From Candidatus Delongbacteria bacterium (GTDB taxonomy: Bacteria; CAIWAD01): DNA of 64,000 nt. Both the position numbers and the translations under genes were made by a program. Positions 4,711 through 49,723 of this stretch are shown piece by piece (positions within the stretch are counted from its first letter, which is position 1; every line of letters begins with the position of its first letter). Location: assembly GCA_041675285.1 (NCBI GenBank), contig JBAYTZ010000014.1, positions 22,891 to 86,890 of the forward strand, read 5' to 3'. Below the pieces are notes generated by a model that saw only the letters and a program-made list of their open reading frames with translations, searched no databases and was not told the DNA's origin.

Positions 4711-5001
4711 GATCAGTCCTCCGGAATGGGCAGCCGGAATCCACCCGGAAGGCAGTCCGGCTGCAGTACACGTGTCGCGGATGAGGGCCGCAAAGCGGCC
4801 TCGGAGGTTGGCCGGCCGGGAGTCGAGGGCCCGGGCGCGTCGAAGTCAGGGCCCGTTCAACGGCGGGTCCCACCGGGAGTTCCGGCCGGACTGCGCCGTC
4901 TGCAGCGGGCTGCGCGGAGTGTCGATGGGACGGGACAGTCGCCGGAAGCGCCGGTGTTGGTGGGGGCTGCCGGCGGCGCGCAGGCCGGATGGTAAAAACA
5001 G

Positions 5002-5033
5002 AGGGAGCCCCCAAAAGGGGTCCCTCTGCTTGT
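5002..5033 (-). terminator. stem-loop (CAGAGGGAGCCCC-loop-GGGGTCCCTCTG) with a T-run on the minus strand; sits exactly at the GC-content boundary of the island
   Basis: Near-perfect 12-13 bp inverted repeat seen directly. Minus-strand reading gives stem + TTTTTACC. No such U-run on the plus strand. Confidence 0.5.
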
Positions 5034-5189
5034 CACTGGAACAATTGGCTTTCATCCCTTCGTTGCAGCTAAATGCTTGATAGTCAAAAGGTTGAGTGTT
5101 TCATTCTTGTGACAATTTTGACCCGTCAAACGCCGGTCAAATGGGTCCTATCCCGGTCTGATATTTGAAGGGTAACGAGCGAGGTGAGG

Positions 5190-6353
5190 ATGCTGAGGAT
5201 TCGATTCACGAAAGCGGCCCTGGAGGCCCTGCAGGGGGATGGTGCGAAGCGCACGTGGGTGTTCGACGATCAGGTGCCCGCGCTGGCCTGCATGGTGACC
5301 CCCGCGGGCGGGAAGTCCTTCTACGTGGTGAAGCACCGCAAAGGGCGCACACACCAGGTGCGCCTCGGCAGCGTGCAAGAATTGGCGGTGGATCGCGCCA
5401 GGCGCATGGCCATCGACATGGTGATGGAGATTCTAGCGGGCAGGGGGCCCGCGCCGGCGCGCCAAGTTGTGGAGGACGTGCCAGCCGAGCTCACGCTGAT
5501 GGAGGCATTTGAGGAATACATGGCGCACGCGGCCACCCGGCGGCGAGACGTGACGCTGGCAGAGTACCGGCGTGCCTGGGACATGCACCTGAGCACGTTG
5601 CAGGGGCGCCCTGTGCGCGAGCTGCGGCGGAAGGACGTGGAGGCCCTGCATCAGCGAATTGGGAAGGACAACGGCCGTATCGCTGCCAACCGCCTGGTGG
5701 CCACGCTGAAGGCTGTCCTGCATCGCGCCATTGCCGTGCACGAACTGGGCATTCCCAACCCCGCTGCGCGCATCGAGTTCTTTGAAGAACAGGAGCGCAC
5801 GCGACGGCTGGAAGCCCACGAGCTGCCGGCGTTCCTGAAGGCAATAGACGAGGATCCCAGCCGCGACCTGCGTGACTTCATCTTGCTCCTGCTCTTCACG
5901 GGAGTGCGCAAGACCAACCTGCTCGCCATGCGTTGGGAGCATGTATCACGCGAGAAGGCGCTCTGGACGATCCCAGGTGGGGAGTCGAAGACCCACCGCG
6001 AACTCCATGTGGTCCTATCCTCTCACGCCATGGCCATCCTGGAGCAGCGCGCGGCTGGGCATGCTGGGCCTTTCGTGTTCCCTGGACGCCAGAAGGGACA
6101 CATGGCATCACCGCAGAACGGCTGGGACCGCATTTGCGTGCGGGCCGGCCTCACCGACCTTCACATGCACGACCTGCGCCGCAGCCTGGCTTCCTTTCAG
6201 ATCGACACAGGCACGCCGCTGGAGGTGATCCAAAAGACGCTGGGTCATGAGTCCAAGGTGACTACGGAGATCTACGCCAGACTGGCGCTCGATCCCGTGC
6301 GGGCGAGTGTGGAGCGGGCGACGGAAGAGATGCTGCGGGCGAAGAAGGACTAA
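5190..6353 (+). CDS. int: tyrosine site-specific integrase, P4-type (N-terminal arm-binding DUF4102-like domain + catalytic domain)
   Basis: N-terminus KAALEALQGDGAKRTWVFDDQVPALACMVTPAGGKSFYVVKHRKGRTHQVRLGS is typical of P4-like integrases. C-terminal catalytic motifs HDLRRSLASF...LGHESKVTTEIYARL (H-x-x-R ... Y). RBS GAGG upstream of ATG 5190 (the track used an upstream GTG at 5184). Confidence 0.9.
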   Translation: MLRIRFTKAALEALQGDGAKRTWVFDDQVPALACMVTPAGGKSFYVVKHRKGRTHQVRLGSVQELAVDRARRMAIDMVMEILAGRGPAPARQVVEDVPAELTLMEAFEEYMAHAATRRRDVTLAEYRRAWDMHLSTLQGRPVRELRRKDVEALHQRIGKDNGRIAANRLVATLKAVLHRAIAVHELGIPNPAARIEFFEEQERTRRLEAHELPAFLKAIDEDPSRDLRDFILLLLFTGVRKTNLLAMRWEHVSREKALWTIPGGESKTHRELHVVLSSHAMAILEQRAAGHAGPFVFPGRQKGHMASPQNGWDRICVRAGLTDLHMHDLRRSLASFQIDTGTPLEVIQKTLGHESKVTTEIYARLALDPVRASVERATEEMLRAKKD

Positions 6354-6376
6354 GGCCACCGCACAACTGGCGGTGC

Positions 6377-6502
6377 AGCCTGGCTCACTTCCAGATTGAC
6401 GCCAGAACGCCGCTTGAGGCGGTTTAGAAGGAGCTGGGGCACGAGTCCAAGACGACCACTGAGATCTATGCCAGGATGGCACCGGAACCCCGTTCGGGCT
6501 AA
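6377..6502 (+). pseudogene. degenerate duplicate of the integrase 3' end (integrase C-terminal fragment with an in-frame stop)
   Basis: Translation SLAHFQIDARTPLEAV*KELGHESKTTTEIYARMAPEP parallels the intact Int C-terminus SLASFQIDTGTPLEVIQKTLGHESKVTTEIYARLALDP. Roughly 75-80% nucleotide identity by eye. Confidence 0.6.
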
Positions 6503-6877
6503 TCATGAGCAAACGATAGAGCATGTTCGAATTCCAAAGGAGTAGTAGCTTCCTTGGTCTGATGCATCATCCGAATTGCCGGACTGCAATCGGGGCAAGA
6601 ATTCCGTTGCGTCCAATGTGTCTCTAATCTGATGCCCCGGTCCGTGCTCGGTTCGTACTTACATCCGAGGCAATGGCGGAATATGACAGAGCAAGTCTTG
6701 ACAAGTCCCCCCTCTCAATCCGTCTCGATAGCGAACCCGCGTAGGTCGCATAAAGCCTATCTCGTTATACTGCGCGCAGCGTGCTTTTTCTCTGACGGGT
6801 CAAGGGGATGCGCCAGTCACATAAGATCCTGCGGGGTTTTATCTAGACTGTCTAATTCTTAGTTATGCCGAAGCAAA

Positions 6878-7822
6878 TTGAAATGTGAGAACTGGAACAT
6901 GTCTGATACGAAGTTTAGGGAACTTAAATTCAGATTACGGCTTTGGACGAACCGAATGCGATTTCAGATTTTGCGTAGTAAGAGAGGAATGCCGCTGAGA
7001 CTATACCTTGATCTTAGGTATAGGAGATTTGTACGGTGGACTATTTGGATGTTGGCAATGACAGGTCTATTGTCATCGTTCATTTCTTTTCAATCAGTAG
7101 TTGTGGCGTTTGTCTTTGGTTTGGTATTGTTTATCCTTGGTAAGGTTTTTGAGTTTTTCGCCTTTGCGCATCCTGCCGCATTTCTCCACGCACTTCCTAC
7201 ATTTGATATTGATCCAGCAAAGTGGACGGGCATGGTGTTTGGATATGCTTGTCCACCTGACAAATCGATTCCTGATGTTCCACTTGTGGGAATGGCTATC
7301 TCCGATCATAGTTATGCGAGGCAGCTGTCAGAACTCTTATTAGTTTGGTCGGACCAAGAAAAAGACGACAAGGATGGTTGCATTGTGGTAAGAGTAATTA
7401 TTCTCAATGAATCTGAGTATATGATCATCTGCAGACCTGGGATAAATAGAAAGAGAGCGAAAGATTTTTTTGACTTGCAGCGCCAGAATCTCAGCAAAGT
7501 GTCATTGATGGATATCGTTGTCGAACACCATGGAATGATTGTGTTTGGAAAGCGATGTGTGATCACAGCAAGCTCGTTCTTCCCCAAGTTTCGCGAAAAG
7601 TATAAAGATGGGACACCGGTTATATTTGGCTTCTTTGACGCGGACCGTCCAGAACTGGGCTTCATTGATGCTCTACCGCAGTTTAGGTTGTCTTCGTTTT
7701 CAATTGTCCGAAAAAATGAGCTGACAAGGCATGACCCGGAATATGATTTGCTGCCGCTTTGGGAAACTGGTGGAGTTTGGCAAGGCCCAGGTGAGCCGCC
7801 TACTCGGAAATCTTCGGCATAA
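6878..7822 (+). CDS. cassette 1: hypothetical membrane protein (2 N-terminal TM helices + cytosolic domain)
   Basis: 314 aa. Hydrophobic stretches LAMTGLLSSFISF and VVVAFVFGLVLFILG. No recognisable catalytic motif. Confidence 0.5.
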   Translation: MKCENWNMSDTKFRELKFRLRLWTNRMRFQILRSKRGMPLRLYLDLRYRRFVRWTIWMLAMTGLLSSFISFQSVVVAFVFGLVLFILGKVFEFFAFAHPAAFLHALPTFDIDPAKWTGMVFGYACPPDKSIPDVPLVGMAISDHSYARQLSELLLVWSDQEKDDKDGCIVVRVIILNESEYMIICRPGINRKRAKDFFDLQRQNLSKVSLMDIVVEHHGMIVFGKRCVITASSFFPKFREKYKDGTPVIFGFFDADRPELGFIDALPQFRLSSFSIVRKNELTRHDPEYDLLPLWETGGVWQGPGEPPTRKSSA

Positions 7823-7944
7823 CATGTGCTTGCAGCCGACTTTGCGCCTGTCACGGCGCTTGCGAGAAGTGAGCGAAGAGGAAGACAAAGAAAGCTAAGG
7901 CAAGCGCCGCGCCAGGCGCGCCGCGGCTGAAGCCAACGTTATGT
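7817..7944 (+). repeat. attC-like site 1 (GCATAAC ... GTTATGT)
   Basis: Inverse core overlaps the TAA stop. Internal inverted repeat GCGCCTGTCACGGCGCTTGC / GCAAGCGCCGCGCCAGGCGC. Shares a conserved family sequence with sites 3 and 5. Confidence 0.6.
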
Positions 7945-7976
7945 GCAGTTGAAGTTGTCATGCAAAGGAACATAAA

Positions 7977-9671
7977 ATGACACCCGCAGAATTTGAGCAA
8001 TCCGTTGATAAAGCTGTTGAGCGACTGCAGATATTCGGTCTTCCCTCAAAGTGCATATTCGGTGCTGTGTTCGGTGTGATTGATAATTTGTTTAACGGTA
8101 AGAGATTTAGTGAAAACATCGAGCCAAGAATCGATGCAGGCTGCGCACTGATTGGTCGACTCTCCTATATGGCACCACTGTTACTTACATGCGATAGTAC
8201 GCAGATAGGTAGTAGCGCACTTGACACACAACAGGCTTACTTCTCCGTCGATTCAGATGGAGAACAGTTAAAGCTATTGCAAGCATATGGCCATTTCTGT
8301 GAGATAATGCCTGAAGTACATCGTGGATACTACAAGGTCATAGAATGCACTACAAACCGGTTGCGACTCGAACATAGCAGCCCTGAATTCAGGCACTCTG
8401 AATCGCTAGATATCATACTATCAGATTTAGCGTTGCCCTACCTTGTTCGTGTTCCTACAAACTACATGAATATGTTTGATAGGCAGGCAGAGCAATTACC
8501 AAAAGGAGACAGTGAGTTTCTAAACAAGACACTGGAAATTCTGTTTAATCATCACGCTACTCACACATTTGAAGTGCCAATATTATCATCCACAGGCTTT
8601 CTTTCGGGAGTTGGTGTATCCTATGAGGAATTTAAGCGTTTCCGTGCTGCATGGTTTGCATTCGCAGACTATTGTTTAGGAATGGCAGCAGCGATATCTC
8701 GATTAGGTGTAAACGACCCTAGCAGACAAGAGCAGTTGTTGCCTGAGCTATTCGAATGGCAGACCATAAACTTTAAAGAATATTTCTGCAAAGATCTAAT
8801 TATAAAAATCTCCAATATCCATCCCGATTCATATGAGAAGATTCTCAGCTTGTACTCATTCTACACTAATAATGAGGAATCTGACATGCGGTTCGGAGAT
8901 GGTTTTTTTCCGCCATTTATTCGGTACAAAGAATCTATCTGCTTCAATCCAAATACTCTTCAAATCATGCTTTCAGAAAGAAACATTCCCTATGTATTGA
9001 ACAAAATTGATCGAAAAAGATTTGATGGTGAGATATCAGAATACATGGAACCCCAGTTGATAAGTATTGCTGTAAAGCTGTTGAAGGCAATTGGCAATTG
9101 GGTGATAGTTGAGAACAAAGCCTGGGCGGGGGGTGAATTCGATATTCTGGTATATGCCCAACATGAAAACGTTGTACTGCATATCCAAGCAAAATCGGCC
9201 ATACCAGCACAAGGCGCAAGAATGATCAAGGCAAATGAAAGCCGCATCAAAGAAGGATTAAGGCAACTAAGAGTTTTCAGAGAAAAGCCTCAATCTTTTC
9301 AGGACTCGATCCTATCTAAGGCATTGGGCTTGAAAGTCTGCAACGCTTTAGTTTTAGATTCAGTACTTAGTCGTTCCAGTTTTGGAACTCATAACCTATG
9401 GTCAGAACTTGATAACACAATTCCATTGTCACCGACAATACTGTTGCACCTAGTGAGGAAGTACAAAGACTCAACACAACAAATTTTATTAACGGATATT
9501 AAGAATGAGATTGAGAGTTTCTTCGAGTTTATTTTGGATGATATGTGTCCGATATGGTCGGAAGCAATACTTGAAATTTCCGATAAGCAAGTTCTCTTTC
9601 CGCTGCTTGAGTTTGATGCAAACAATCTATCAAAACTGCGCGAAAGACTATGGAACTACTACGCAGTTTAA
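7977..9671 (+). CDS. cassette 2: hypothetical protein with a possible C-terminal PD-(D/E)xK nuclease-like motif
   Basis: 564 aa. Segment WAGGEFDILVYAQHENVVLHIQAKS fits D ... (E/Q)xK. Otherwise no similarity I can assign. Confidence 0.5.
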   Translation: MTPAEFEQSVDKAVERLQIFGLPSKCIFGAVFGVIDNLFNGKRFSENIEPRIDAGCALIGRLSYMAPLLLTCDSTQIGSSALDTQQAYFSVDSDGEQLKLLQAYGHFCEIMPEVHRGYYKVIECTTNRLRLEHSSPEFRHSESLDIILSDLALPYLVRVPTNYMNMFDRQAEQLPKGDSEFLNKTLEILFNHHATHTFEVPILSSTGFLSGVGVSYEEFKRFRAAWFAFADYCLGMAAAISRLGVNDPSRQEQLLPELFEWQTINFKEYFCKDLIIKISNIHPDSYEKILSLYSFYTNNEESDMRFGDGFFPPFIRYKESICFNPNTLQIMLSERNIPYVLNKIDRKRFDGEISEYMEPQLISIAVKLLKAIGNWVIVENKAWAGGEFDILVYAQHENVVLHIQAKSAIPAQGARMIKANESRIKEGLRQLRVFREKPQSFQDSILSKALGLKVCNALVLDSVLSRSSFGTHNLWSELDNTIPLSPTILLHLVRKYKDSTQQILLTDIKNEIESFFEFILDDMCPIWSEAILEISDKQVLFPLLEFDANNLSKLRERLWNYYAV

Positions 9672-9691
9672 TGGGAATCTAAATTGTAATA

Positions 9692-9822
9692 GCACATAAC
9701 AACTGCATGAAGCTGATGCCTCGCCTTGTCGCGGCCTTTGCCCTGGCAGATGACGCCTGCGCGTCAGGCTTGACGAGCAAAGCCCGCGCCAAGCCGGTCA
9801 CAGCTTATGCAGAACGTTATGC
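9692..9822 (+). repeat. attC-like site 2 (GCACATAAC ... GTTATGC)
   Basis: Inverted repeats GGCCTTTGC/GCAAAGCCC and CTGCATGAAGCTGATGCC/GGTCACAGCTTATGCAG. Ends 15 bp before the cassette 3 start (RBS AAGGAG + TTG). Confidence 0.55.
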
Positions 9823-9836
9823 ACAAGGAGCAGTAG

Positions 9837-10517
9837 TTGTCTAATCAAGAGATTGAAGAAACGACAGGCGATAGGCTGTCTCAGGCTAAGATCTACTTCG
9901 CATTTGTCAACGATCATGCCTCTTCACTTGATGACAAGGCGCGTACTCTTTTAACGATCGTATCATTACTAATCGGAACAGGGGTTCTGACTTTTTTCAA
10001 AGCGACTTTTGACAGTCAAGCAACCCTTAGCATTCGTCTAGCTTTTGTGGTGCTTGAATTGTCTCTATTGGCAACCTCAGCTGTTGCATTCTTCAAAATT
10101 CTGAACGTTTTGCGACTTCACGGATATAAGGGACCGCCTGATGCAAAAGGATTCCTGGAAAAGTTCAGAACAGAAGATGCCAAGACGACGAGGGAATCAC
10201 TGGCGCATTATTATGCTGCTGCGGCGGCAGAAAATTCAGAGCAAGTAAACACGATGGCCTCATGTTTGAAGGAGGCTTTCATTTGGACAAAAGTCGCATT
10301 CGGGGTGTTTCTGTTGTCAATCGTTACGTTAACACTCGCAATGTCATTTGGTGGAGAGCCAAAAATGTCAAACCAGAATGAAGCTCCAAAAAATCCCGCA
10401 AGCGGGACAACATCAGGTCAAGGATCGCAACCAACTCAACCGGCATCATCAGCACCGCCTGAACCTAAGCCAGTTCCGGGAACTCGAATTGAAAAGAGCG
10501 ATACACCTGGCAAGTAG
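9837..10517 (+). CDS. cassette 3: small 3-TM membrane protein with a low-complexity S/P/T-rich C-terminal tail
   Basis: 226 aa. TM segments LLTIVSLLIGTGVLTFF, LAFVVLELSLLATSAVAFF and VAFGVFLLSIVTLTLAMSF. Resembles small membrane effector/sensor proteins of defence systems (SLATT-like topology), but this is only topology-level similarity. Confidence 0.5.
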   Translation: MSNQEIEETTGDRLSQAKIYFAFVNDHASSLDDKARTLLTIVSLLIGTGVLTFFKATFDSQATLSIRLAFVVLELSLLATSAVAFFKILNVLRLHGYKGPPDAKGFLEKFRTEDAKTTRESLAHYYAAAAAENSEQVNTMASCLKEAFIWTKVAFGVFLLSIVTLTLAMSFGGEPKMSNQNEAPKNPASGTTSGQGSQPTQPASSAPPEPKPVPGTRIEKSDTPGK

Positions 10518-10527
10518 AAGTACGTAT

Positions 10528-10653
10528 GCATAACATGCCGTGCAGCCGACTATGCGCTTGTCACAGTGCTTACAGAACTTGACACAAAGAAACGTCGGTA
10601 AGACGAGGCAAGCGCCGCGCCAAGCGCGACGCGGCTGACGCCAGCCGTTAGGC
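10528..10653 (+). repeat. attC-like site 3 (GCATAAC ... GTTAGGC)
   Basis: Same sequence family as site 1 (TGCAGCCGACT.TGCGC.TGTCAC ... GCAAGCGCCGCGCCA.GCGCG.CGCGGCTGA.GCC). Confidence 0.6.
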
Positions 10654-10666
10654 ATTTGGGGGAAAG

Positions 10667-11674
10667 ATGATCAGAACAGCAGCGCAAGAAATCGAAAAAG
10701 TGGAAATGGGTAGACCGCACTTAGTCATTCTTGGCGCAGGGGCAAGTTACGCATCTACACCAACTGGCGATCGATTCGGAAAGCATCTCCCGCTGATGTC
10801 GAATTTGATTGAAATCCTTGAACTTGATGACATCGTTTCGAAATCTGGAATTGACTGTAGCAAGGGCAATTTTGAAACATTCTATTCGGAGCTTTACTTG
10901 CGAAAGGATATGGAATCGCAACGGAGAGAGCTCGAAGAGCGCATTCATCGCTACTTTAGCAGTTTGGAGTTACCGGAAGAACCCACTATCTACGACCATC
11001 TTGTTCTCAGTCTGCGCGAGAAAGACTATGTAGCGACATTCAATTGGGATCCTTTCCTGGTTCAGGCAATAAAGCGAAATGGCCGACGCTTCCCAATGCC
11101 CCGTCCACTTTTTCTCCATGGAAATGTAGCTGTCGGCTATTGTCGTCATGGGCATTCAATGGGTGACATTGGAAGTTGTTGCTCTAAATGTGGCGAGAGC
11201 TTTGTTCCGACAAGGATTCTGTACCCTGTTGCAGAGAAGAACTATCAAAACACTGAATTCATAGATCGGCAGTGGAGGGCAATCCAGGCAATTCTAAATG
11301 ATACATTTATGGTCACAGTTTTTGGCTATGGTGCCCCAGCCACAGATGCGAGTGCGGTTGAATTGCTGAAAACTGCCTGGGGTGGCGGCGACACTCGGGT
11401 TATGGAAGAGATTGAGATCATCGATATTCGCGATGATAATGAGTTAGAAGATCTTTGGTCACCGTTCATACATTCACATCATTACCGAGTGCACAGCTCC
11501 TTCTACGATTCGTGGATCTCAAAACATCCCCGCAGAACGGGCGAGGCCTATATCGATCAGTTCATCGATGCGATGTTCATCGAAGACAATCCTATTCCAC
11601 GTGGTTTGAGTTTTACCGGACTCTGGGATTGGTTTCAACCTTTGTCAGATGTAGAATTTGAGGCAAATGTCTGA
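10667..11674 (+). CDS. cassette 4: SIR2-like (SIR2_2 family) NAD-binding/NADase-type protein with an internal Cys/His Zn-ribbon-like insert
   Basis: Four SIR2_2 motifs in the same order as in ThsA-type SIR2 domains: LVILGAGAS (GAGxS), ATFNWDPF (TTNYD-like), LFLHGNV (catalytic HG), VFGYGAPATD (FVGFSFxD-like). Insert CRHGHSMGDIGSCCSKCGE resembles the sirtuin Zn module. Confidence 0.7.
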   Translation: MIRTAAQEIEKVEMGRPHLVILGAGASYASTPTGDRFGKHLPLMSNLIEILELDDIVSKSGIDCSKGNFETFYSELYLRKDMESQRRELEERIHRYFSSLELPEEPTIYDHLVLSLREKDYVATFNWDPFLVQAIKRNGRRFPMPRPLFLHGNVAVGYCRHGHSMGDIGSCCSKCGESFVPTRILYPVAEKNYQNTEFIDRQWRAIQAILNDTFMVTVFGYGAPATDASAVELLKTAWGGGDTRVMEEIEIIDIRDDNELEDLWSPFIHSHHYRVHSSFYDSWISKHPRRTGEAYIDQFIDAMFIEDNPIPRGLSFTGLWDWFQPLSDVEFEANV

Positions 11675-11795
11675 CAAGAACTTGCAATTGCCCCGCCCAG
11701 CGTCACGCCGCTTGCGTTGGACGCGACGCTAATCTTGGACGGAAATGTTCGCAAGCGGCGCGCCTCTGGGTGGGCAATTGAAGTCAACGTTAGGT
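11674..11795 (+). repeat. attC-like site 4 (... GTTAGGT)
   Basis: Inverted repeats GCAATTGCCCCGCCCAGCGTCACGCCGCTTGCG / CGCAAGCGGCGCGCCTCTGGGTGGGCAATTG. 3' core GTTAGGT lies 25 bp before the cassette 5 ATG. The 5' inverse core is poorly matched (CAAGAAC). Confidence 0.5.
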
Positions 11796-11819
11796 TCACA
11801 AGGAACTGAAGTGACGTAA

Positions 11820-12704
11820 ATGAAGATATTCCCTGATCCACCGCGCTTTGCTGATGAAGTCATCAGGTCATGTAAGCGAACGAATGATTATAGACCTATA
11901 ATATTCGAGTGGTATCAACACGTAATGATGCTTGCTAATGAGGTTTCCCTAATAAGCTTTGAATCACCTTCGGTTAGACAATTGAATAGATTGCAACATA
12001 TTGTTCTAGCTGGACTTCTATTTAGATGCAGTAGACTCATGAACTCGGTAGCATTAATTTCACGGAATGGCGAGTTTGGTGAAACTACAGCTATTCTGGA
12101 TCGATGTATATTTGAATCTTCAATAAAAGTTGTTTGGTTATGTCGAAGCGGGACTTATGACAAGTTTGTGCGATTCATGGCCAATGGTCTGAAAGCCGAT
12201 GTTTGTTTGAAGAATGAAATCGAAAAGGAGATCAAATCGCGAGGAGGAGCAGTACTGGAGATCGAAAATCGAATGCTGAAGTCAATTGAGAATTTCTTAG
12301 AGATTTCAAATCTTAGTGAAGAGGATGTAAGAGATTGTAAATGTCTTCCTCGTTTTGATATCATGATGCGTGAAATTGGGGAAAGTGATCTTGGTTATAT
12401 AGTAGGACAGAAGATTAACTCACACTTTGTTCACGGAACATGGTCTGGAATGCTACATCATTGTCTGAAGGTTGGTGATGATGGACTGTTGCATGTGGGA
12501 AGAAGTAGATGTCAAACGCACTTCAGTCAGTATTTAGGTACGGCGCTACAGGTTGTCGTTGCGGTATATGCTTATTGTGAATGGATGTTTGATCAGTCAA
12601 CTGCAAAAGTTTTCAAGGATGCTCTTCAGTTTGTTTATGATGAAGTGCTCAAGGTGGAACAGTCTGCAATGGGACGAGATTTTGACGAGGTGAATGGAAC
12701 CTAA
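11820..12704 (+). CDS. cassette 5: hypothetical protein
   Basis: 294 aa, low-GC ORF with plausible protein composition. No assignable motif. Confidence 0.5.
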   Translation: MKIFPDPPRFADEVIRSCKRTNDYRPIIFEWYQHVMMLANEVSLISFESPSVRQLNRLQHIVLAGLLFRCSRLMNSVALISRNGEFGETTAILDRCIFESSIKVVWLCRSGTYDKFVRFMANGLKADVCLKNEIEKEIKSRGGAVLEIENRMLKSIENFLEISNLSEEDVRDCKCLPRFDIMMREIGESDLGYIVGQKINSHFVHGTWSGMLHHCLKVGDDGLLHVGRSRCQTHFSQYLGTALQVVVAVYAYCEWMFDQSTAKVFKDALQFVYDEVLKVEQSAMGRDFDEVNGT

Positions 12705-12830
12705 CAACAGCTTGCAGCCGACTTTGCGCCTGTCACGGCGCTTGCAGGCTGGATTTGAAGAAACGTCGGTAGGAAAAAGCAAGCGACGCGCCAGACGCGT
12801 CGCGGCTGAAGCCGCGGAGCCAAAGTCCTC
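12700..12830 (+). repeat. attC-like site 5 (ACCTAAC ...; conserved family body but no canonical GTTRRRY 3' core)
   Basis: Same family body as sites 1 and 3 up to GCGGCTGAAGCC, then diverges (GCGGAGCCAAAG). A lone GCCTAAC occurs about 60 bp downstream (12888-12894). Confidence 0.45.
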
Positions 12831-13425
12831 GCCAAATTCTTCTTCAGTGCTGACGAATGGAATCGCGGCGTTCGACTCAGCACGGTCGCCTAACCACTTG
12901 ATCCCATTGAAAATTGACGTCGCTAAGGCGGCAAACCCACTGCTGGAGCGGGCTGAAGGCCAAACAGAGAACAGTTTGCCGAAGACTTGCCTCGGATCCC
13001 CAAGCCCCGCAATGGGGCACTCAACCCATGTACCAGACCCGCTTATCTTGGCTCCCGTGTCTCACGTTGCACGGTTACCTCGGAGTGGATCATGTCCCGG
13101 CTTACATACATCGCGGCCCTCACCATCGCCCGTCCCATTCACCACTGCGCCCTCTCCCGTTCCATTCTGCTGACCCTCAAGTAGCCCGGAGCGACAGTCC
13201 AGGCCTGGTTGATCACCAGGTCTAACGCGGACCGTTCGGCCCGGGCATTCCTGTGCTCATCCCATTTCCGTGTGACACACGGATCGGGTGATCTCTGCCT
13301 ACAGGTCGCCAGGGCGAACTCTGCCCAGTTCATCACCTGTCGGCTCCGGCGCGCACCCAGCGCCCGGGCCTTGATCCCGCTCTCCGGCGAAGCCGCGCCG
13401 GCGCTGACGCAGCGCTGGAGCGGCC

Positions 13426-14124
13426 ATGCTACCCACCAAACGCACCGATGCCCTCACCCCCCAGTCCGTCGCGGACTACTTGACCCTGGCCGCGGAAAAT
13501 GCCGCGCTGCCGGCGACGCTGGAGGCGTTCCTGGCCCTCCTCGGCCCGGAGGGAAAGGACAAGAATGAAGAACGCAAGGCGGCCCTGGCGACGGTCCTCC
13601 AGAAGTTGCAGACAGGGCATCCGGCGCGTGCCAGCATCCAGCTCTGGCTGCTGGTCGCCTATGCCCCCCTGCTCCGAGGGCTTGCCGGCCGCTATTCGCG
13701 AAATGGCAACGAGCAGGCGGATGTCGAGAGCACTGTCGTGGTCGCATTCCTGGAGACCATCCAAGGCACCCCTGAAGCGCGGCTGAAGGATGCCTTTCTG
13801 CAGAAGCGGGTCTTGGACGACACCAAGGACCGGGTCCGAGTTCACCTGGGTCTGCGAGACTACCAGCAAGACAACCGCATCGAGCTCGTGGCGGACGACG
13901 CAGTGCAGGAGGACCGCGCACCGGACGAGCGGGTGGATGGATACGAGTCGCTGCTGGCCCAGATCAATGAGCTGCCCATCGCCGCCAGCGACCGCGACCT
14001 CTTGGTGGGGATCTATGTCTACGGCTACAGCATGGCCGAGCTGGCCGAGAGGTGGCACATCCCCCACGACACCGTCAAGAAGCGCTACCAGCGGCTGCTG
14101 CGGCGCCTGAAGGAAAAACTCTGA
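13426..14124 (+). CDS. sigma-70 family (ECF-like) RNA polymerase sigma factor
   Basis: Region-2-like LWLLVAYAPLLRGLAGRYSR and region-4 HTH YSMAELAERWHIPHDTVKKRYQRLLRRLKE. 232 aa. Confidence 0.65.
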   Translation: MLPTKRTDALTPQSVADYLTLAAENAALPATLEAFLALLGPEGKDKNEERKAALATVLQKLQTGHPARASIQLWLLVAYAPLLRGLAGRYSRNGNEQADVESTVVVAFLETIQGTPEARLKDAFLQKRVLDDTKDRVRVHLGLRDYQQDNRIELVADDAVQEDRAPDERVDGYESLLAQINELPIAASDRDLLVGIYVYGYSMAELAERWHIPHDTVKKRYQRLLRRLKEKL

Positions 14125-14179
14125 CCCCTGTCCCCTTTGGCCTGATTTCCCGCCCTCTTCTAAGGAAACGACCAAGGAG
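14124..14179 (+). promoter_or_regulatory. 56-bp conserved promoter/leader element, copy 1 (ACCCCTGTCCCCTTTGGCCTGATTTCCCGCCCTCTTCTAAGGAAACGACCAAGGAG)
   Basis: Near-identical second copy at 24748-24804. Both end in RBS AAGGAG 6-8 nt before an ATG. Lies immediately downstream of the sigma-factor gene. Confidence 0.55.
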
Positions 14180-14185
14180 ACCCGG

Positions 14186-14473
14186 ATGACCCAGACCGCC
14201 ACCCTGCCCACCACCGCAGACGCCGAAGAGGTCGCCAGCCGCGTCAAGGGAGCTTTCCTCATCCTGACGCTGGAGTTCGGCGGCATCGCTGCGGAGCACA
14301 ACCTCGACACCATCGTGACGGAGCGCGTGTCCGCCTCCATCGAGACGGCCCTCCGTGCCTGTCTGGAGCCCCTGGAAAGCCTGCGCACCAAGCCCGTGCT
14401 CGGGGCAACCCTCAACCTCAGACCCTACCCAGCCATAGCCCGCCTTCTGGGCGTCATCCGTGACACGCAGTAA
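14186..14473 (+). CDS. hypothetical protein
   Basis: 95 aa. ATG preceded by AAGGAG within the conserved leader. Confidence 0.45.
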   Translation: MTQTATLPTTADAEEVASRVKGAFLILTLEFGGIAAEHNLDTIVTERVSASIETALRACLEPLESLRTKPVLGATLNLRPYPAIARLLGVIRDTQ

Positions 14474-14498
14474 TCCACATCAATCTGGAGGTCCCACC

Positions 14499-15269
14499 AT
14501 GGGCCGATTCGACGACATGAACAAGCGCCACGAGCAGCACACCCTGGAGAGTGGCCGCTTCCTCAAATTCGACGACGGAGACAAGCACCTGCTGGTCTTC
14601 CTGGGCTTCCCCCACATCCGCGAGGTGTACTGGGACGGCACCAACTACCACGACTGGAAAGACGGCTGCGGCAAGGAGAAAAGCCTGAAGACCTCGATGA
14701 ACGTGGCCATCATCGAGCTGGTTGGCGGCAGATACATCTTCAAGGCCCTCAAGGTCCTGGAGAACTCCAAGACGTTCTTCAAGCAGGTCAACAAGATGGA
14801 TGTCAAGTACGGCGTCGACAACGAGATCTTCGAAGTTGAGCGCACGGGCCAGAAGGCCAAGGACACCACCTACACGATCCTTCCTGAGGCCCCCATCAGT
14901 CCCGAGCTGCGCGCCCAGCTGGACGCTCTGGAACTCAACGACCTCACCAAGGATCGCGACGACGACGACCAGAAGGGCGGCAGTGGCGGCAGCACCACCA
15001 AGCAGCCCGATCCCCCGGCCATCATCACCCAGGACGAGGGAAACGCCATCATCGAGCGGCTCAAGGCCCTCAAGGCCGCGCTGGGCGACGCCCAGGGCGC
15101 GCAGATGATGGCCGATTTCCTGGCCAAGTTCGGCATCAAGCAGATCCGCCAGCTCCCAGCGGCCAGGCTCAAGGAAGCCCAGCAGTGGATCGCGGGAGAG
15201 GAGGAGAACCTGCGTCACGCCAAGAATGATGGCGGCGTGGGTGCGGCCGAGGCCGACCCCTTCTCCTGA
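14499..15269 (+). CDS. hypothetical protein, possibly an SSB-like ssDNA-binding protein (Gly-rich linker + acidic C-terminal tip ...EADPFS)
   Basis: Start MGRFDD with GGAGG RBS. GGSGGSTT linker. Terminal DPFS resembles SSB C-terminal tips (DIPF). Weak. Confidence 0.4.
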   Translation: MGRFDDMNKRHEQHTLESGRFLKFDDGDKHLLVFLGFPHIREVYWDGTNYHDWKDGCGKEKSLKTSMNVAIIELVGGRYIFKALKVLENSKTFFKQVNKMDVKYGVDNEIFEVERTGQKAKDTTYTILPEAPISPELRAQLDALELNDLTKDRDDDDQKGGSGGSTTKQPDPPAIITQDEGNAIIERLKALKAALGDAQGAQMMADFLAKFGIKQIRQLPAARLKEAQQWIAGEEENLRHAKNDGGVGAAEADPFS

Positions 15270-15348
15270 TCCCGTTCCCCAGGGCCCGGTCGACTTCCTC
15301 ACGTGCTTGTCGACCGGGCCTCACTTCCACCCCAGCAGAGAGCCAATC

Positions 15349-17367
15349 ATGCACCTTTCGGATTCCACTCCCTGGCCGGTGCTGCCAGAGGACCTGCTCA
15401 CCCTGCCCGGCGACCCGGAGATGCAGGAGCCCATTGTCACGGCTGAAGAGGTCTTCGGCCCTGGTGGCCTTCTGTCTCAGCGGCTGCCCGACTACCAACC
15501 CAGGGCCAGTCAACTCATCATGGCCCAGGAAGTGGAGCAGGCCCTAACGGATGGCCGGAGTCTGATGGTTGAAGCGCCGACAGGCACGGGAAAGAGCCTC
15601 GCCTATTCCGTGCCGGCCATCCAGCACGCCCTAATCACTGGGCAGCGGGTGCTCATCGCTACGGCCAACATCGCCCTGCAGGAGCAGCTCACCCAGAAAG
15701 ACCTGCCCTTCCTGCAGCGAGTGCTGCCCGGCCCCTTTCGATTCGCGCTCCTCAAGGGCCGAGGGAACTTTTTATGCAGCAGCCTCCTCCTGGAACAGCG
15801 GAGCATGCTCTTCGCTGGAGTCTCCGGCGAAGACCAGGACGAGTTCGACCGCGTTCTCGACTGGACGAATCGGACCAGCACGGGCGATGCAGGCGAGCTT
15901 CCCTTCAGAGTTAAGCCCCGGGTATGGCGCCACTTCGCCGTCGGTGATACAAGCGAGTGTGCCGGCTGCACGCTGAAGTGCTACCACAAGGCCGCCATGG
16001 TCGAGGCCGAGGATGCCCAGGTGGTGGTCTGCAACTACCACCTGCTCTTTGCCCACCTGAAGGTCCAGGCGGCCACGTGCGGCATGGCCGGCGTGCTGCC
16101 GACCTTTGACGCCCTCATCTGCGACGAGGCCCACGAGGTCCCGGACATCGGCAGCGACTTTGCCGGTGAAGAGATCGGCCGCTGGAGCTTCCGTGGTTTC
16201 AAACGCCACCTCTCACGCGGTGGGTTCGAGGCACTAGACCGCGCCGCCGATGGCCTGTCCAAGGCCATCAAACTGATGGCGTTCCGGCACGCTGCGGCTG
16301 GATCGAACCGCATCAAGCTCCCCGGTCTCATCGACGAGGAACCCATTCTGGAGGCCCTACGCCACGCCTGGCTGGAGCTGCGCGCCCTGCAGGCCCAGTA
16401 CGAGGCGGAAACCAAAGAGCACGCCCAACTGGAACGCCAGAAGGAGCAGTGTCGCCAGCTGGCCCAGCTGGTCCATCGCCTGATCTGGCAGGAGTTCTCG
16501 GATTGGGTCTACTGGGTGGAGCGCCAGGAATCTCACATTGGCGAGAGCTGGAAGCTCAAGGGCAAGCCGGTTTCCATCGCACCCTTCCTGCAACAGGCTC
16601 TCTTGCCCTGGGTTCCGTTGATCGCCACCAGCGCGACGCTGACCACCACCCATGAGGACTTCACCTTCATCCGCGAGCGCATCGGCCTGGACGCTGCAAC
16701 GCGTCAGGTCGTCTTGCCCAGCCCCTTTGACTTCAGCAGCGCGGCCCTCCTGGTGGTGCCTGAAGGGCTTCCTGAGCCCAACGATCCTGCCCACCGCGAC
16801 CGCGTGCAGGGTGAGCTCCACGAAGCCGTGCAGCAGAGCGGTGGCCGGGCCCTCCTGCTCTTCACGTCCAGCCAAGCGCTGAAGGCTGCTCACAGCCTGC
16901 TGGCCCCGGAGTTCGAACGCATGAACTACGCCTGCCACTGCCAAGGCGATGCCCCCTCCACTAAGCTCATCACCCGCTTCAAGGAGGACGTGTCCAGTGT
17001 CCTCTTTGCCACGCGGACTTTCTTCCAGGGCGTGGACGTACCCGGGGAGAGCCTGTCCCTCGTGGCCCTGGACCGCTTGCCCTTCCCCTCGCCAGCGGAC
17101 CCGGTGATGGACTACATCGCCGAGCACGACCCCAAGGGCTGGTTCTTCAAGCACAGCCTGCCCATCGCCCTGATCACCTGGAAGCAAATCTTCGGTCGCC
17201 TGATCCGCCGGCACGACGACCGCGGCGTGGTGCTGCTGCTGGATGGCCGGGTGGGCACGAAGAAGTACGGCAAACAGTTCTTGAAAGCCATCCCGGGCGG
17301 CATGTTGAGCCGCGAGGTGGCGGCCATTGGGTCCTTCCTGGCCGACCCGGAGGACCCTTTCGCATGA
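15349..17367 (+). CDS. DinG/XPD-family (Rad3-like) ATP-dependent DNA helicase with an Fe-S cysteine cluster
   Basis: Walker A MVEAPTGTGKSLAY, DEAH box LICDEAHE, Cys cluster SECAGCTLKCY between the motifs. Ends ...PEDPFA. Confidence 0.8.
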   Translation: MHLSDSTPWPVLPEDLLTLPGDPEMQEPIVTAEEVFGPGGLLSQRLPDYQPRASQLIMAQEVEQALTDGRSLMVEAPTGTGKSLAYSVPAIQHALITGQRVLIATANIALQEQLTQKDLPFLQRVLPGPFRFALLKGRGNFLCSSLLLEQRSMLFAGVSGEDQDEFDRVLDWTNRTSTGDAGELPFRVKPRVWRHFAVGDTSECAGCTLKCYHKAAMVEAEDAQVVVCNYHLLFAHLKVQAATCGMAGVLPTFDALICDEAHEVPDIGSDFAGEEIGRWSFRGFKRHLSRGGFEALDRAADGLSKAIKLMAFRHAAAGSNRIKLPGLIDEEPILEALRHAWLELRALQAQYEAETKEHAQLERQKEQCRQLAQLVHRLIWQEFSDWVYWVERQESHIGESWKLKGKPVSIAPFLQQALLPWVPLIATSATLTTTHEDFTFIRERIGLDAATRQVVLPSPFDFSSAALLVVPEGLPEPNDPAHRDRVQGELHEAVQQSGGRALLLFTSSQALKAAHSLLAPEFERMNYACHCQGDAPSTKLITRFKEDVSSVLFATRTFFQGVDVPGESLSLVALDRLPFPSPADPVMDYIAEHDPKGWFFKHSLPIALITWKQIFGRLIRRHDDRGVVLLLDGRVGTKKYGKQFLKAIPGGMLSREVAAIGSFLADPEDPFA

Positions 17368-33562: not shown

Positions 33563-33883
33563 AAACCGCGAAAAAACGTCCAGGATCATGCCGCCCCGCC
33601 TTGGGGCGGCATTTGTGTGTCAAAGGGATCGCCCACCAGGTGCGTGCGAAAATGTCCGAGAATGGCTGTTCCCGGACGTTGGCGCGGGCATAGAGTGCGT
33701 ACATCACCTGCCGGCAGCCTGGCAAACGGGTGGGCCGGGGGGTGGTCTGGCGCAAAGCGGCAGGCCCCGCCGGGGCATCTTGGCTGTAAGGGGTGCTTTT
33801 GCGCACGCGTAGCTGGCCTATATGCAGAAGCTCCAGTGCTATACTCTTCCACCAATCTTGTTGCCTATTCAAGCAGGAAAGCT

Positions 33884-36800
33884 ATGAGCGACTCCACATC
33901 AGGGCGAAGCCTTTTCATTGTTGACAACAGCGTCTCCAACTGGACTGGAATCCGATATCTAGATGAATGGGCCGGCATCGCCAAATCCTTCGACGTGGCG
34001 ACCGGCTACTTCGAGATCGGCGCCCTTTTGGCCCTGGATGGCAAGTGGCAAGGATTGGACAAGCTGCGCATCCTCATGGGGGCGGAAACCACTCAACGCA
34101 CGCGCCAGGCGCTGCGCGAGGCGGTCACTTCGCGAGCGACGAATCGGCTGGACAACAGCCTGGAGGAGGAGAAGGATGCCAACCCTTTCCTCCGCGGCGT
34201 GCCGGCGATTCTCGATGCCCTGCGGCGCGGCCAGATTGATGTCCGGGTCTACGACAAGGACAAGTTCCACGCCAAGGCCTACATCACACACGCCAAACTG
34301 GAAGTCGTCGGTTCCCAGGCCCTGGTTGGCTCCAGCAACTTCACTCGACCAGGCCTGACCAAGAACATCGAGTTGAACATCCAGGTCCAGAGCGCGCGGG
34401 AAGTGGCGCAGCTCCAGGAGTGGTTTGAAATCCACTGGAATGACGCCCGTGAGGTGACAGACGCGGTCATTCGCATCATCGAGCGCCAAACGCAGGAGTA
34501 TGCCCCATTCGAGATCTATGCCAAGGCCCTTCAGGAGTATTTCCGCGGACATGAGCTGACGGACACTGAGTGGGAAGATGGGCAGTCGCGCATGTTTCCC
34601 GTGTTGGATCGTTACCAGAAAGAGGCCTATTGGAAGCTGCAAAAGATTGCCCATGCCCATGGTGGGGCCTTCCTCTGCGACGGGGTGGGTTTGGGTAAGA
34701 CTTTCGTGGGACTGATGCTCATTGAGCGCTTGATCCTGCACGAGGGCAAGCGGGTGGTGCTCTTCGCGCCCAAGACCGCCAAGGAAGGGGTCTGGGAGCG
34801 GGACCTGAAGCGCTATCTGCCTCACATCGGCGGCATTAGCGGCGGCGCGGATTTCAGCAATCTGGCCGTCTTCAGTCACTCGGACTTGGGACGCAAAGGA
34901 GATTTCCCCGAGCGCTTCCGGCGAATGACGGAGTTGGCCGATGTGGTGATCGTGGATGAGGCGCATCACTTTCGCAACCCCGGCACCCCAGGGGACGCGG
35001 ATGCAGAAGTGGAGCCCTCCCGCTACTTCCAGCTCTTCAACCTCCTCGACAACACGCAACGATCCAAGACGCTCTACATGCTGACGGCCACGCCCATCAA
35101 CAACAGCTTGCATGATTTCCGGCACATGGTGGAGCTGTTCTCGCGTCGCCAGGAGGATTGGTTCAAGTCCCTGGGCATCCACAACCTGCGTGCCCACGTC
35201 AACAAGCTGGAGCGGGACCTGCGCCAGCGCATGGCGAGTGCAGCTGTGGCAAAAACCCAGTCGACGGAAGTCGCCCTGGGCGAACTGACGACGGAGCTGC
35301 AGGAAGTCCTCGCCGCGGATCCGCTGATCGGTGAGTTGGTGGTCCAGCGCAGTCGCTCCTATGTGCGGGAGAGCCAGTTGCGTGAGCATGGCAAGGCGGC
35401 GGTCTTCCCCGTGCGCAGGCCCCCCCAGGTGGCGGACTACAGCATCCGCAAGAGTTACGGACGCTTGCTGGAGATCTTTGAGCTGGCCTTCCGCAAGGAA
35501 CACCCGCTGTTTTCGCTGCCCATGTACTACCCCTTGGCCTTTCCTCGGGTTGAGGATGGCAGCGTGGATCCTTTCGAGGAGAGCCGACAGAAGGAGGTGG
35601 TGGGGCTCATCCGCACCCAGTTCCTGAAGCGCTTCGAAAGCTCGGTGGCGTCCTTTGAGATTTCCTGCGACCGGCTGTTGAAGAAGCTGCTCGCTTTCCT
35701 GGAGATCCATTGCGAGACGGAGCGGGAGCGCAGGTTGCTGGAGCGCTGCCTCCTGCAGCACAAAGACGTGCTGGGCTTTGTCCATTCCCGGCAGAGCGAG
35801 ATCTGGGAGAGCGAGGCCGGTGAAGAGGGCGAGAGCGACTTGATACCACCCGAGTTCCTGGCCCGGGTGACCAAGCTGGATCGCGCCGAGTACCGCGTGG
35901 AAGACATGATCCAGGAGACCCTGCAAGATGTGAACCAGATCGCGGCCTTCTTGGAGGAAGCCAGGCATTTCCAGCCCAAGCATGACGACAAGCTGCGTCG
36001 GCTGGTGCGCCTGCTGAAGTCCAAGGAACTGGCGGGACAGAAGGTGCTGGTGTTCACCGAGTACGCCGACACGGCCCGCTACCTGAAGCGCCAATTGCGT
36101 GCGGAGGGCATTGAAGGCGTCGGTGAGGTGGACGGCGGCACGCCGGGCAGCCGCGCCCAGGTGATTGCCCGGTTCGCGCCCTATTACAACGGACACAGCT
36201 CTGCTGAGATGGAGGCGGAAGGAGGCGAGATCAGGGTGTTGATTTCCACCGACGTCCTGTCGGAAGGCCTCAACCTCCAGGACGCGTCACGGATGATCAA
36301 CTACGACATCCACTGGAACCCCGTGCGCTTGATGCAGCGCATCGGCCGTGTGGACCGCCGCTTGAATCCGGAAGTGGAGGCGCGCCTTCTGGCGGACCAT
36401 CCCGAGCTGAAGGGCTCGCGCGGCATCGTCCACTACTGGAATTTCCTCCCGCCCGATGAGCTGAACCAGTTGCTTAGTCTCTACACCATCGTCACGCGCA
36501 AGACTCTGCTGATCTCGCGGACTCTGGGCATTGAAGGCGGCAAGCTGCTTCGGCCGGAGGACATGTACGACGACCTCAAGGTCCTCAATGCCCATGACGC
36601 GGCCTACGAGGGCTCGCGCACCGTGGTCGAGGACTTGCACTTGGAATACCAGGCCTTGCTGGCTGCGATGCCGGAGCTGGAGGCGAAGTTGAAAGCGCTA
36701 CCGGGGGCTGTGTTCAGTGGCCGGGAGGCAGTGACAGCAGGTCTACGCGGCGTGTTTTTCTGCTACGCCCTGCCTGCTCTGGACCTGGAGACCGGCGAGT

Positions 36801-43455: not shown

Positions 43456-43456
43456 G

Positions 43457-44620: not shown

Positions 44621-45072
44621 CTTTCACACAAGCAGTTGCAGCCTCACCTGACATTGCAAGCGCATATCAGCGAGGTTTAGGAGCATTGAAGGCTGTAGAT
44701 CGTGCTCATATTACGGTCAATAAGTCCACAAAACTCAAGGGAAGTGTTGATATTGATTCAACGTTGCAATCTAAGTGCCCAACTGAACACCGTTGGGATT
44801 ATGGGATTGGTAAGTCACAGGGTGGGAAGAAGGGTGATAAAGTCATCTGGGTTGAAATCCATCCAGCAAAAGACGGTGAAATCAATACGATGATGGACAA
44901 ATTGGCCTGGTTGAAGTCTTGGCTTCAGACATCCGCTACTGACTTGGATGCATTGTCGCGTGAATTCATATGGATATCAAGCGGAAAAACTACCATCACG
45001 CAAGGTAGCCCCGCAGCGAGAAAAATGGCCTTGGCTGGGTTGAGATTAGCGGGACATCATCTTCATCTTTGA
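44617..45072 (+). CDS. hypothetical small protein (151 aa) translationally coupled to the ATPase
   Basis: 4-nt ATGA overlap with the ATPase gene. No recognisable motif. Confidence 0.45.
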   Translation: MTFTQAVAASPDIASAYQRGLGALKAVDRAHITVNKSTKLKGSVDIDSTLQSKCPTEHRWDYGIGKSQGGKKGDKVIWVEIHPAKDGEINTMMDKLAWLKSWLQTSATDLDALSREFIWISSGKTTITQGSPAARKMALAGLRLAGHHLHL

Positions 45073-49599: not shown

Positions 49600-49723
49600 G
49601 GGGTCTCCGTGGTTGGGTGGCGGCAAGGCGGGATCGCAAGGTCCCGCCCGCGCATGTCTCTGGACATGAGTCTGCACTAGTCGGGTCCGAAAGTCAAGTC
49701 TCAACCCATTGAGAGTAAACGAG

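Follow-up and report, generated by a model that had tools for sequence, protein, structure and literature searches.

Among ICEs (integrative and conjugative elements) and IMEs (integrative and mobilizable elements), related elements can occupy one attachment site, and relics of integrase genes are left behind there as scars. Islands that enter the 3′ ends of transfer RNA (tRNA), transfer-messenger RNA (tmRNA), or protein genes carry a replacement 3′ end. The mosaic makeup of ICEs and IMEs, their tandem accretion, and the exchange of integration modules among them have been reviewed (e.g., PMC5704250, PMC5812530). In the myxophage Mx8, attP lies inside the int coding sequence, and integration gives int a new 3′ end (PMC6070905). 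For integrons, clusters of attC sites lacking an integron integrase have been defined as CALINs (Cury et al. 2016, PMC4889954), and cassettes have been found to insert outside att sites, at attG (Loot et al., bioRxiv 10.1101/2022.09.11.507474). Here, we describe a locus that touches on each of these systems. It lies in a stretch of 64,000 nucleotides (nt), referred to as the window, from a metagenome-assembled genome (MAG) of Candidatus Delongbacteria with ~68 to 70% G+C (contig JBAYTZ010000014.1, positions 22,891 to 86,890 of the forward strand). In the window, a complete integrase gene (int) is followed within a few bases by a degenerate copy of an int 3′ end, which we call the fragment, and then by a low-G+C spacer and an array of integron cassettes (Table 1). 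We consider it probable that the fragment is the dead 3′ remnant of a second int with different alleles, that it is a scar of recombination between related elements, and that it is not an attachment site.

The locus resembles the mosaic ICEs and IMEs in that one site serves related elements, integrase and cargo differ in their histories, and truncated integrases remain as scars. Unlike in those systems, the remnant in the window abuts the stop codon of an intact int, the breakpoint recurs reciprocally at a second locus, and no tandem array was seen in the DNA searched. As in Mx8 and elements of the SSV type, the 3′ end of int takes part in rearrangement, and a C-terminal int fragment may stand alone when the element is integrated. 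However, the parts of int lie at opposite ends of the Mx8 prophage, with a new tail on the resident gene, whereas the int of the window is complete, has its own stop codon, and lies beside the fragment, ~140 nt inside the left junction, with the candidate att core upstream of it. In the islands in 3′ ends, as in our locus, the 3′ end of a gene is directly repeated in degenerate form, but the repeat in the window flanks no element, and the copy that would be the displaced one carries a foreign allele. The locus is composed of ordinary kinds of structure, with the recurrent position of the junction as the one unexplained detail.

Table 1. Positions of the features discussed, counted from the first nucleotide of the window
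Feature	Position	Strand	Basis or remark
Candidate attachment core, attL side, CTGCTTGTCACTGGAAC	5026..5042	+	Exact in relatives; just past terminator hairpin at 4999-5013
P4-like tyrosine integrase, complete	5184..6353	+	389 amino acids from GTG; Pfam, NCBIfam, homologue search
Junction of int stop codon and fragment, GGCCACC	6354..6360	+	Alignable with the L094 and L015 junctions
Integrase pseudogene fragment, codons ~329-372 of a different, type F (L015-like) int of the same subfamily	6361..6495	+	Similarity, allele analysis, L094/L095 ortholog
Unique noncoding spacer, 45-52% G+C	6496..6861		No homologue found; surroundings 65-70% G+C
GTTATGC, following CTAA..TTAG; boundary of the first cassette, putative attI-type crossover point	6862..6868	+	Read from the sequence
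Five cassette open reading frames: 6878-7822, 7977-9671, 9837-10517, 10667-11674, 11820-12704	6878..12704	+	40-46% G+C, co-oriented
attC 1-4	7812..7950, 9689-9828, 10523-10659, 11664-11801	+	Covariance model, R″/R′ boxes
attC 5, cut before its R′ box (GTTRRRY missing); right edge of integron-derived DNA	12694..12813	+	Sequence, covariance model
Conserved downstream box, CACTTGATCC ... GGAGCGGGCTGAAGGC	12887..12960	+	Directly after int in relatives; element cargo resumes

The intact int (database version P0001, 387 amino acids) encodes a P4-like integrase of the phage-type tyrosine recombinases. Its product matched Phage_integrase (PF00589, Pfam) with an E value of 5.5e-24 and the arm-type DNA-binding domain PF13356 (Arm-DNA-bind_3) with 26.7 bits, just below the cutoff of 27, and its homologues carry PF13356. 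The HDLRR box, which starts at 6168, and the EIYARL motif, which contains the tyrosine, were invariant over 39 aligned family members and supply the catalytic HxxR and Tyr. The possibility that this gene is an integron integrase was rejected on its score of 21.5 bits against the TIGR02249 cutoff of 265.

A degenerate copy of the int 3′ end directly after int had been reported in a preliminary description of this DNA, and our searches confirm it. Positions 6361 to 6490 aligned without gaps to 6167 to 6296 at 74% nucleotide identity; the similarity is real, and the copy belongs to the same subfamily. In a tblastn search, the fragment matched int residues 329 to 371 (67% amino acid identity, E = 1.8e-12), and a DNA profile of the family matched positions 6362 to 6516 with nhmmer (E = 6e-28). 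The ~130 nt that re-encode the int tail begin at 6361, ~8 nt past the TAA stop codon of int and slightly before the start at 6377 given previously. The fragment translates as HNWRCSLAHFQIDARTPLEAV*KELGHESKTTTEIYARMAPEP, compared with HDLRRSLASFQIDTGTPLEVIQKTLGHESKVTTEIYARLALDP in the intact protein. Its in-frame stop, also recognized earlier, is a TAG at 6425 to 6427, the next stop being a TAA at 6500 to 6502, and the second Arg of its HxxRR box has become Cys. Having only codons ~329 to 372, an internal TAG, the Arg-to-Cys exchange, and no 5′ part in the DNA searched, which comprised the window and 5.3 kb beyond its right edge (to 69.3 kb), the fragment is not a functional integrase gene.

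Apart from int and the fragment, nothing in the window matched the family DNA profile as a piece of an integrase gene, and no direct repeat of the fragment occurs elsewhere in it. Two candidate extensions were rejected. The similarity seems to trail off weakly as far as 6548, but this extension is probably spurious and gains no support from comparison with the related locus L095, and a second part beyond the cassette array (12828 to 12862), plausible by eye, did not rise above shuffled controls. The hairpin that had been placed between the two copies, CACCGC..GCGGTG, exists but is weak (z = -2.2, with 8 of 200 shuffled sequences folding equally well) and has no U tail. Half of it consists of the first codons of the fragment, and the equivalent junction in locus L015 lacks it.

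The fragment is not a copy of the neighboring int, since the sites that discriminate between candidate parents do not favor that neighbor. Its amino acid identity to 58 family members was 67 to 76%, with no preference for the int beside it. Where the window int and the L015 int differ, the fragment agrees with its neighbor at 10 sites and with L015 at 13; where the window int and the L002 int differ, the counts are 9 and 11. Furthermore, 4 of the 14 amino acid changes in the fragment are alternative alleles of the family (simulation P = 0.03). At L094, the corresponding fragment is an intact reading frame of 62 codons, and its nucleotide sequence is 91% identical to the 3′ end of the intact L015 int, 78% identical to its own neighboring int, and 75 to 81% identical to all other integrases. 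The fragments of the window and of L094/L095 have derived changes in common, namely, CGC to TGC in the second Arg codon and TCC to CAC or TAC, and because these mutations are shared, the fragments stem from one event. From these allele patterns, the fragment is the tail of an L015-type integrase, here termed type F, that is paralogous to its neighbor. The states that set the L015 type apart are shared with proteins only 60 to 66% identical in their N-terminal parts and are therefore far older than the fragment.

L015 itself presents the mirror arrangement. There, an intact F-type int is followed, 6 to 8 nt past its stop codon, by a decayed fragment with deletions, and this fragment has the window-type allele at 16 discriminating sites and the allele of its own neighboring int at 8. 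The junctions, TAAAGCCCAAGCCATTG/CAC in L094 and TGAATCATTCCACCGG/CAC in L015, are alignable with GGCCACC in the window. The window and L015 fragments are 58 to 62% alike, and each is 70 to 77% identical to intact genes. Because the fragments resemble each other less than each resembles the intact genes, independent decay fits, and a conserved functional site is disfavored. L015 apparently belongs to the same MAG as the window, as judged from consecutive NCBI accessions. By the same yardstick (MFA7329739 to MFA7331997), at least four paralogous integrases of the subfamily apparently occur in that one MAG (P0001, P0038, P0008, and P0017, the paralogues having 51 to 54% amino acid identity to the window int). 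Each heads a separate element, P0008 heading a tailed prophage (L007). As an observation apart, L015 carries on its minus strand, at 9772 to 9812, a tRNA-like 3′ half (T arm GGTTCGACTCC plus acceptor end) followed by its own terminator hairpin. This half lies ~135 nt upstream of the L015 integrase, ARAGORN found no complete tRNA there, and it resembles the displaced end of an RNA gene that served the F-type element as an attachment site.

Relics of integrase genes are common in the family. Thirteen short C-terminal fragments have been called as open reading frames in other metagenomes, and 5′-truncated copies of int are present in L017 (from residue 121) and L090 (from residue 292). Two of the database proteins, P0136 and P0138, are C-terminal fragments of different allele types that carry the same foreign upstream peptide (...VSAFQSPGRRRR), joined at one codon of the HDLRR|SLASFQ box; at this codon, P0137 is linked to yet another sequence. 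This shared codon could reflect an insertion element or a recombination hotspot.

In the window, int and the fragment behave as one mobile block. Positions 5009 to 6480 were 93.5% identical to L095, compared with 70% for the glycosyltransferase flank, which indicates that the block entered both hosts as part of a mobile element. The scar is therefore passed on with the element among hosts that share only 70% identity in their chromosomal flanks. L094 to L101, which come from other samples, all have the same left-flank gene order, an int at least 90% identical to that of the window, and the same junction of int and fragment. L001 and L002 to L004 have the same left flank as well, with int identities to the window of 87% and 77%, respectively. 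At the same site, they have no fragment and no array, and int leads directly into a box of ~70 nt. Because these relatives pass from int straight to the box, the DNA from 6354 to ~12886 is extra in the window.

Comparison of these loci also yielded a candidate for the attachment core, and it lies upstream of int rather than in the int 3′ end. The sequence CTGCTTGTCACTGGAAC, found ~140 nt upstream of int with the element starting directly to its right, is exact in 11 loci that hold different elements (L001 to L004 and L095 to L101), and L095 and L003, whose chromosomal sequences agree fully as far as this core, carry different elements beyond it. The high identity of the window to L095 also sets in at the core. 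It is the best candidate core that sequence comparison offers. The core occurs once in the window, no direct repeat of the left junction was found elsewhere in it, and the element extends beyond 69.3 kb; up to that point, the DNA contained neither an attR nor the lost 5′ half of the second int. ARAGORN found no tRNA or tmRNA in the whole window, and there were no Rfam matches in it, leaving no RNA target beside int. Between a 296-amino-acid gene and the core, the window has ~260 nt of GC-rich noncoding DNA (4738 to 5000) that is absent from L095, L003, and L001, in which the intergenic region measures ~215 nt.

The position of this core speaks against an att core inside the int 3′ end, which had been suggested from the sequence of the locus alone, and so does the pattern of conservation in int. 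The 3′ end is conserved at 85 to 98% of amino acids, compared with 45 to 50% for the N-terminal part, yet identity at 4-fold sites is 0.53 in the 3′ end and 0.45 in the rest, both equally saturated. Because synonymous sites are saturated alike in both parts, the C terminus is conserved as protein and not as a DNA site, and this saturation rules out DNA-level constraint or gene conversion as the cause of the conserved 3′ end.

The int of the window is itself a mosaic. Against L095, identity is 97% up to ~6190 and ~80% after it; divergence amounts to 2 to 4% over 5043 to ~6150, ~17 to 22% in the last 100 nt of int, and 20 to 26% in the fragment. Since divergence rises at ~6190, a crossover took place inside the conserved 3′ segment, and this segment is a crossover point for swaps of integrase modules. 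The intact 3′ end bears no mark of import, because its allele states at variable residues are those of the closest relatives, L001, L002, and L090. Three breakpoints lie within 350 nt: a recent homologous crossover at ~6190, an old join of int and fragment at 6354 to 6360, and a join to low-G+C DNA at ~6495. Homology to L095 stops at ~6490 to 6500, and the last of these joins removed the final ~17 codons of the fragment in the window lineage. In L034, cargo shared with the window from 13278 on (78 to 86% nucleotide identity) stands with an int of only 54% amino acid identity and a different left flank, and 3.3 kb of other low-G+C DNA lies between int and cargo. Given this pattern, integrase and cargo have different histories, and the spot past int gathers foreign DNA. 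Just past int lies a general point of exchange for these elements, at which other members of the family carry other foreign DNA.

Taking the fragment as the remnant of a second int, we propose that two related elements recombined such that an integration module (the att site and the complete int of one element) was joined to the other element at about codon 325 of the latter's int, in place of the att site and the first ~325 codons there. The module would have ended a few bases past its int stop codon, and the 5′ five-sixths of the second int would have been discarded, leaving the last ~62 codons. The join was probably illegitimate or microhomology mediated, for example, a deletion after tandem accretion. 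The scar has no function of its own and has since moved along with the element while decaying; in the window, the decay of the fragment consists of the stop codon, the Arg-to-Cys exchange in the catalytic box, and ~20% substitutions. A low-G+C integron remnant later joined at ~6495 and cut off the end of the fragment. The locus is a well-resolved case of integrative elements changing their integrase, with the conserved last ~60 codons of int as the seam. The serial events proposed in the preliminary description are retained here insofar as related elements did recombine at this place; integration into an int 3′ end with a replacement end is not.

Several observations weigh against this mechanism. 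In the window/L094 lineage and in L015 alike, the join connects nearly identical places: a point a few bases past a stop codon and codon ~322 to 329. This recurrence, and the alignability of the three junctions, would not be expected from random illegitimate recombination. Neither the 5′ part of the second int nor a tandem intermediate was found in the window, in the DNA to 69.3 kb, or within 10 kb on either side in L015. Furthermore, the window fragment is ~4 to 5 times more diverged from the type F sequence than the L094 fragment is. A simple neutral clock fails for the window/L094 divergence, and either gene conversion in L094 or faster decay in the window must be assumed. The data also leave either int as the possible newcomer, and all of the sequences compared are metagenome assemblies, either MAGs or metagenome contigs.

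The recurrence of the junction would be expected if the join were site specific and catalyzed by an integrase, with a site that follows one int's stop codon (a CACTTGATC-like sequence where the box begins) occasionally recombining with a look-alike at the HMHDLRR codons of another (CACATGCAC). Both sites resemble the att core (CACTGGAAC), and the product would be one module fused to the body of the other element, with the fragment left behind. We regard this as unlikely, if still worth weighing. The junction does recur both ways, as a window-type int with an F fragment and as an F-type int with a window-like fragment, apparently in one genome, and the alignability of the three junctions points in the same direction. 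In addition, the fragments P0131, P0132, P0134, P0136, P0137, and P0138 start at or within a few codons of the HDLRR box, and P0136 and P0138 combine one foreign peptide and one join codon with different C-terminal allele types. However, because gene callers open reading frames at the Met of HMHDLRR, fragment starts seem more clustered than they are. The resemblance among the 9-mers was read by eye, amounts to 6 or 7 of 9 positions, and may arise by chance. The reciprocal product, an int 5′ part joined to the box, was not seen in the DNA searched, and the candidate motif in L015 lies near the tRNA-like scar and not at the junction. The more general idea that integrase genes serve as landing sites, with integrase repeatably joining the site past the stop codon of one int to the look-alike in the HMHDLRR codons of a paralogue, strikes us as distinctly unlikely; if true, a whole element would be re-equipped with a new integration module, and a neutral pad would be left on which foreign DNA such as integron arrays gathers. 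The wider interest of the locus lies only in the recurrent breakpoint, and only if that breakpoint is enzymatic.

A simpler origin would be local tandem duplication of the neighbor's own int 3′ end by unequal crossing-over, followed by neutral decay. The mismatches between fragment and int by codon position (11, 6, and 17 of 43 each) fit neutral decay plus synonymous drift, and the L015 junction has a possible 7-nt microhomology, GGGATGA. Such a duplication is nonetheless very unlikely: the discriminating sites do not side with the neighbor in the window (10:13 and 9:11) or in L015 (8:16), the L094 fragment resembles another int (91%) more than its neighbor (78%), and the L015-type states predate the fragment.

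Very unlikely as well, in our estimate, is the model of the preliminary description, in which a small element entered the 3′ end of a resident int with a replacement end, so that the core would lie in the last ~190 nt and the fragment would be the displaced end. This is the classical footprint at tRNA and other 3′-end targets, and the int C terminus is unusually conserved. Such a layout does occur on the 40-kb contig of P0005, where two small genes separate an intact int from a 77-amino-acid C-terminal integrase fragment 1.4 kb downstream. In the window, however, the copies are separated by ~8 nt and not by an element, and as far as 69.3 kb, a third copy is lacking. Moreover, it is the fragment that is the foreign allele, whereas the intact 3′ end has the states of its closest relatives; the candidate core is upstream of int; and synonymous sites show no DNA-level constraint.

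Assembly error, in the form of a chimeric join of strain or paralogue reads, is an extremely unlikely source of the arrangement. All data are MAG or metagenome contigs, several paralogous int genes apparently share one genome, and many related contigs break near int, but the same junction of int and fragment recurs in independent contigs of other samples, at least eight in number (L094 to L101). The order from int to cassette 1 matches the NCBI annotation of the MAG, with consecutive accession and locus-tag numbers, and copies only 74% identical are too dissimilar to mislead an assembler. The template and variable repeats of a diversity-generating retroelement would share the geometry of the two copies, but the probability is negligible and the mismatch spectrum refutes this reading, the mismatches being even over the fragment bases (A, 9; G, 9; T, 8; C, 8) with no adenine bias, the copied region being the invariant catalytic box, and no reverse transcriptase occurring among the neighboring proteins scanned. 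For annotation, the fragment is a pseudogene remnant, the array is a CALIN on a prophage-like element, and the fragment is not to be read as evidence for an att site inside int.

The G+C content of the window is 70 to 75% in the glycosyltransferase genes on the left, 65% in int, 40 to 46% from 6.9 to 12.7 kb, and ~65% from 13 kb on. A cassette array downstream of the low-G+C noncoding stretch had been suggested previously, and the five attC sites bear this out. Each scored 110 to 130 bits, far higher on the plus than on the minus strand, with a covariance model that was built from the same five sites, which makes the scores partly circular. The attC hairpin has 37 base pairs, 16 of which show compensatory changes. 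The R″ box reads ..ATAAC and the R′ box GTTATGT, GTTATGC, GTTAGGC, or GTTAGGT, GTTRRRY being present in four of the five sites, and the sites are of the type GCATAAC..GCAGCCGAC..GCGGCTGAAGCC..GTTATGC. The model recovered exactly five sites in the window and none in 31 related loci, so the notion that attC arrays regularly accompany this integrase family was dropped. The cassettes contain a DUF5677 protein (cassette 5) and a weak PycTM match (cassette 3) only; cassette 1 has three distant homologues.

The array has more than two co-oriented attC sites with R″/L″...L′/R′ hairpins, spaced by open reading frames, and there is no intI in the window, as in a CALIN. It is not part of a complete integron, the two recombinases of the window scoring 21.5 and 84.9 bits against the TIGR02249 cutoff of 265. 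Nothing similar to the spacer was found at any locus, elsewhere in the window, in plasmids or Rfam, or in the downstream box, and no IntI-like reading frame or remnant was seen in 6340 to 6900. Presumably, the spacer is what remains of an integron platform (the attI region) whose integrase gene is gone. The GTTATGC at 6862, a heptamer of the same type as the attC R′ boxes, would be the attI end. By comparison with L094/L095 and L002, the array is a later addition of ~6.3 kb, joined at ~6495 in the window lineage only. Four of the five attC sites are nearly identical in type, and the cassettes have 40 to 46% G+C in a host of ~68 to 70%. The low G+C content of the cassettes and the near-identity of attC types suggest that the array was imported en bloc from a low-G+C sedentary integron. 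The locus is like described CALINs and attG insertions in that its cassettes, five in number and co-oriented, have canonical attC hairpins, have no intI nearby, and lie inside a mobile element. It is unlike them in that an attI-like end is kept, the last attC has no R′ box, the left edge lies in an integrase pseudogene, and the cassettes are ~25% lower in G+C than the host. By analogy with attG insertion, CALINs possibly spread through off-site integrase activity.

To the right of the array, the downstream box marks the return of element sequence. L002 1484 to 2714 matches window 12887 to 14118, the L002 homologues of window 12887 to 17000 come after the box, and in L001 the box stands directly past the stop codon. 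The conserved sequence extends as CACTTGATCC...GGAGCGGGCTGAAGGC...GTTTGCCGAAGACTTGCC, followed by the hairpin GCCCCGCAATGGGGC (window 12887 to 13060, L002 1484 to 1640, and L001 1650 to 1720). The TGA of the box closes the int reading frame in L001, L002, and the L015 fragment. The box may act as a terminator or regulatory site, or it may mark the boundary of a module. From 13 kb on, the cargo comprises a helicase, a primase-like protein, nucleases, an HKD-plus-Snf2 protein, a type IIG restriction enzyme, PDC-M56, and Mu-F-like/virion-type genes; by this gene content, the cargo and int make up a large prophage-like element.

Some neighboring genes and relatives merit brief mention. Integrases of the family repeatedly have, immediately downstream and in convergent orientation, low-G+C genes for large secreted proteins with a type IX secretion system (T9SS) sorting domain (Por_Secre_tail), namely, in L034 (11371 to 14064), L090 (654 to 2711), L017 (6961 to 11049), and L094 (591 to 1634). 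The idea that the low-G+C genes downstream of the relatives' int form one common element was rejected because they share only the T9SS sorting domain, the L017/L090/L094 group excepted. In L017 (5347 to 6937), an int without its first 120 codons is fused head-to-head to a 281-amino-acid gene, whose homologue (73% nucleotide identity) lies far to the right in the window, at 63263 to 63982, in the opposite orientation. The fusion is another rearrangement joining int to distant parts of this element family. A second tyrosine recombinase in the window (48751 to 49752, minus strand) is XerC/D-like, with Phage_integrase and a SAM-like N domain; it is located midway in the element, adjoins the Mu-F-like and probable head genes, and, at 84.9 bits against the cutoff of 265, is not an integron integrase. 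The HKD-plus-Snf2 protein is encoded at 33617 to 37054, and a two-gene candidate defense system, PDC-M56 A/B (PADLOC, E = 4e-150 and 2e-44), occupies a patch of lower G+C content at 43385 to 45072. The type IIG/Type ISP restriction-methylase gene (39176 to 42715) has ~60% G+C and contains a patch of 42% G+C at 41001 to 42000; this low-G+C C-terminal specificity part suggests a swapped target-recognition domain.

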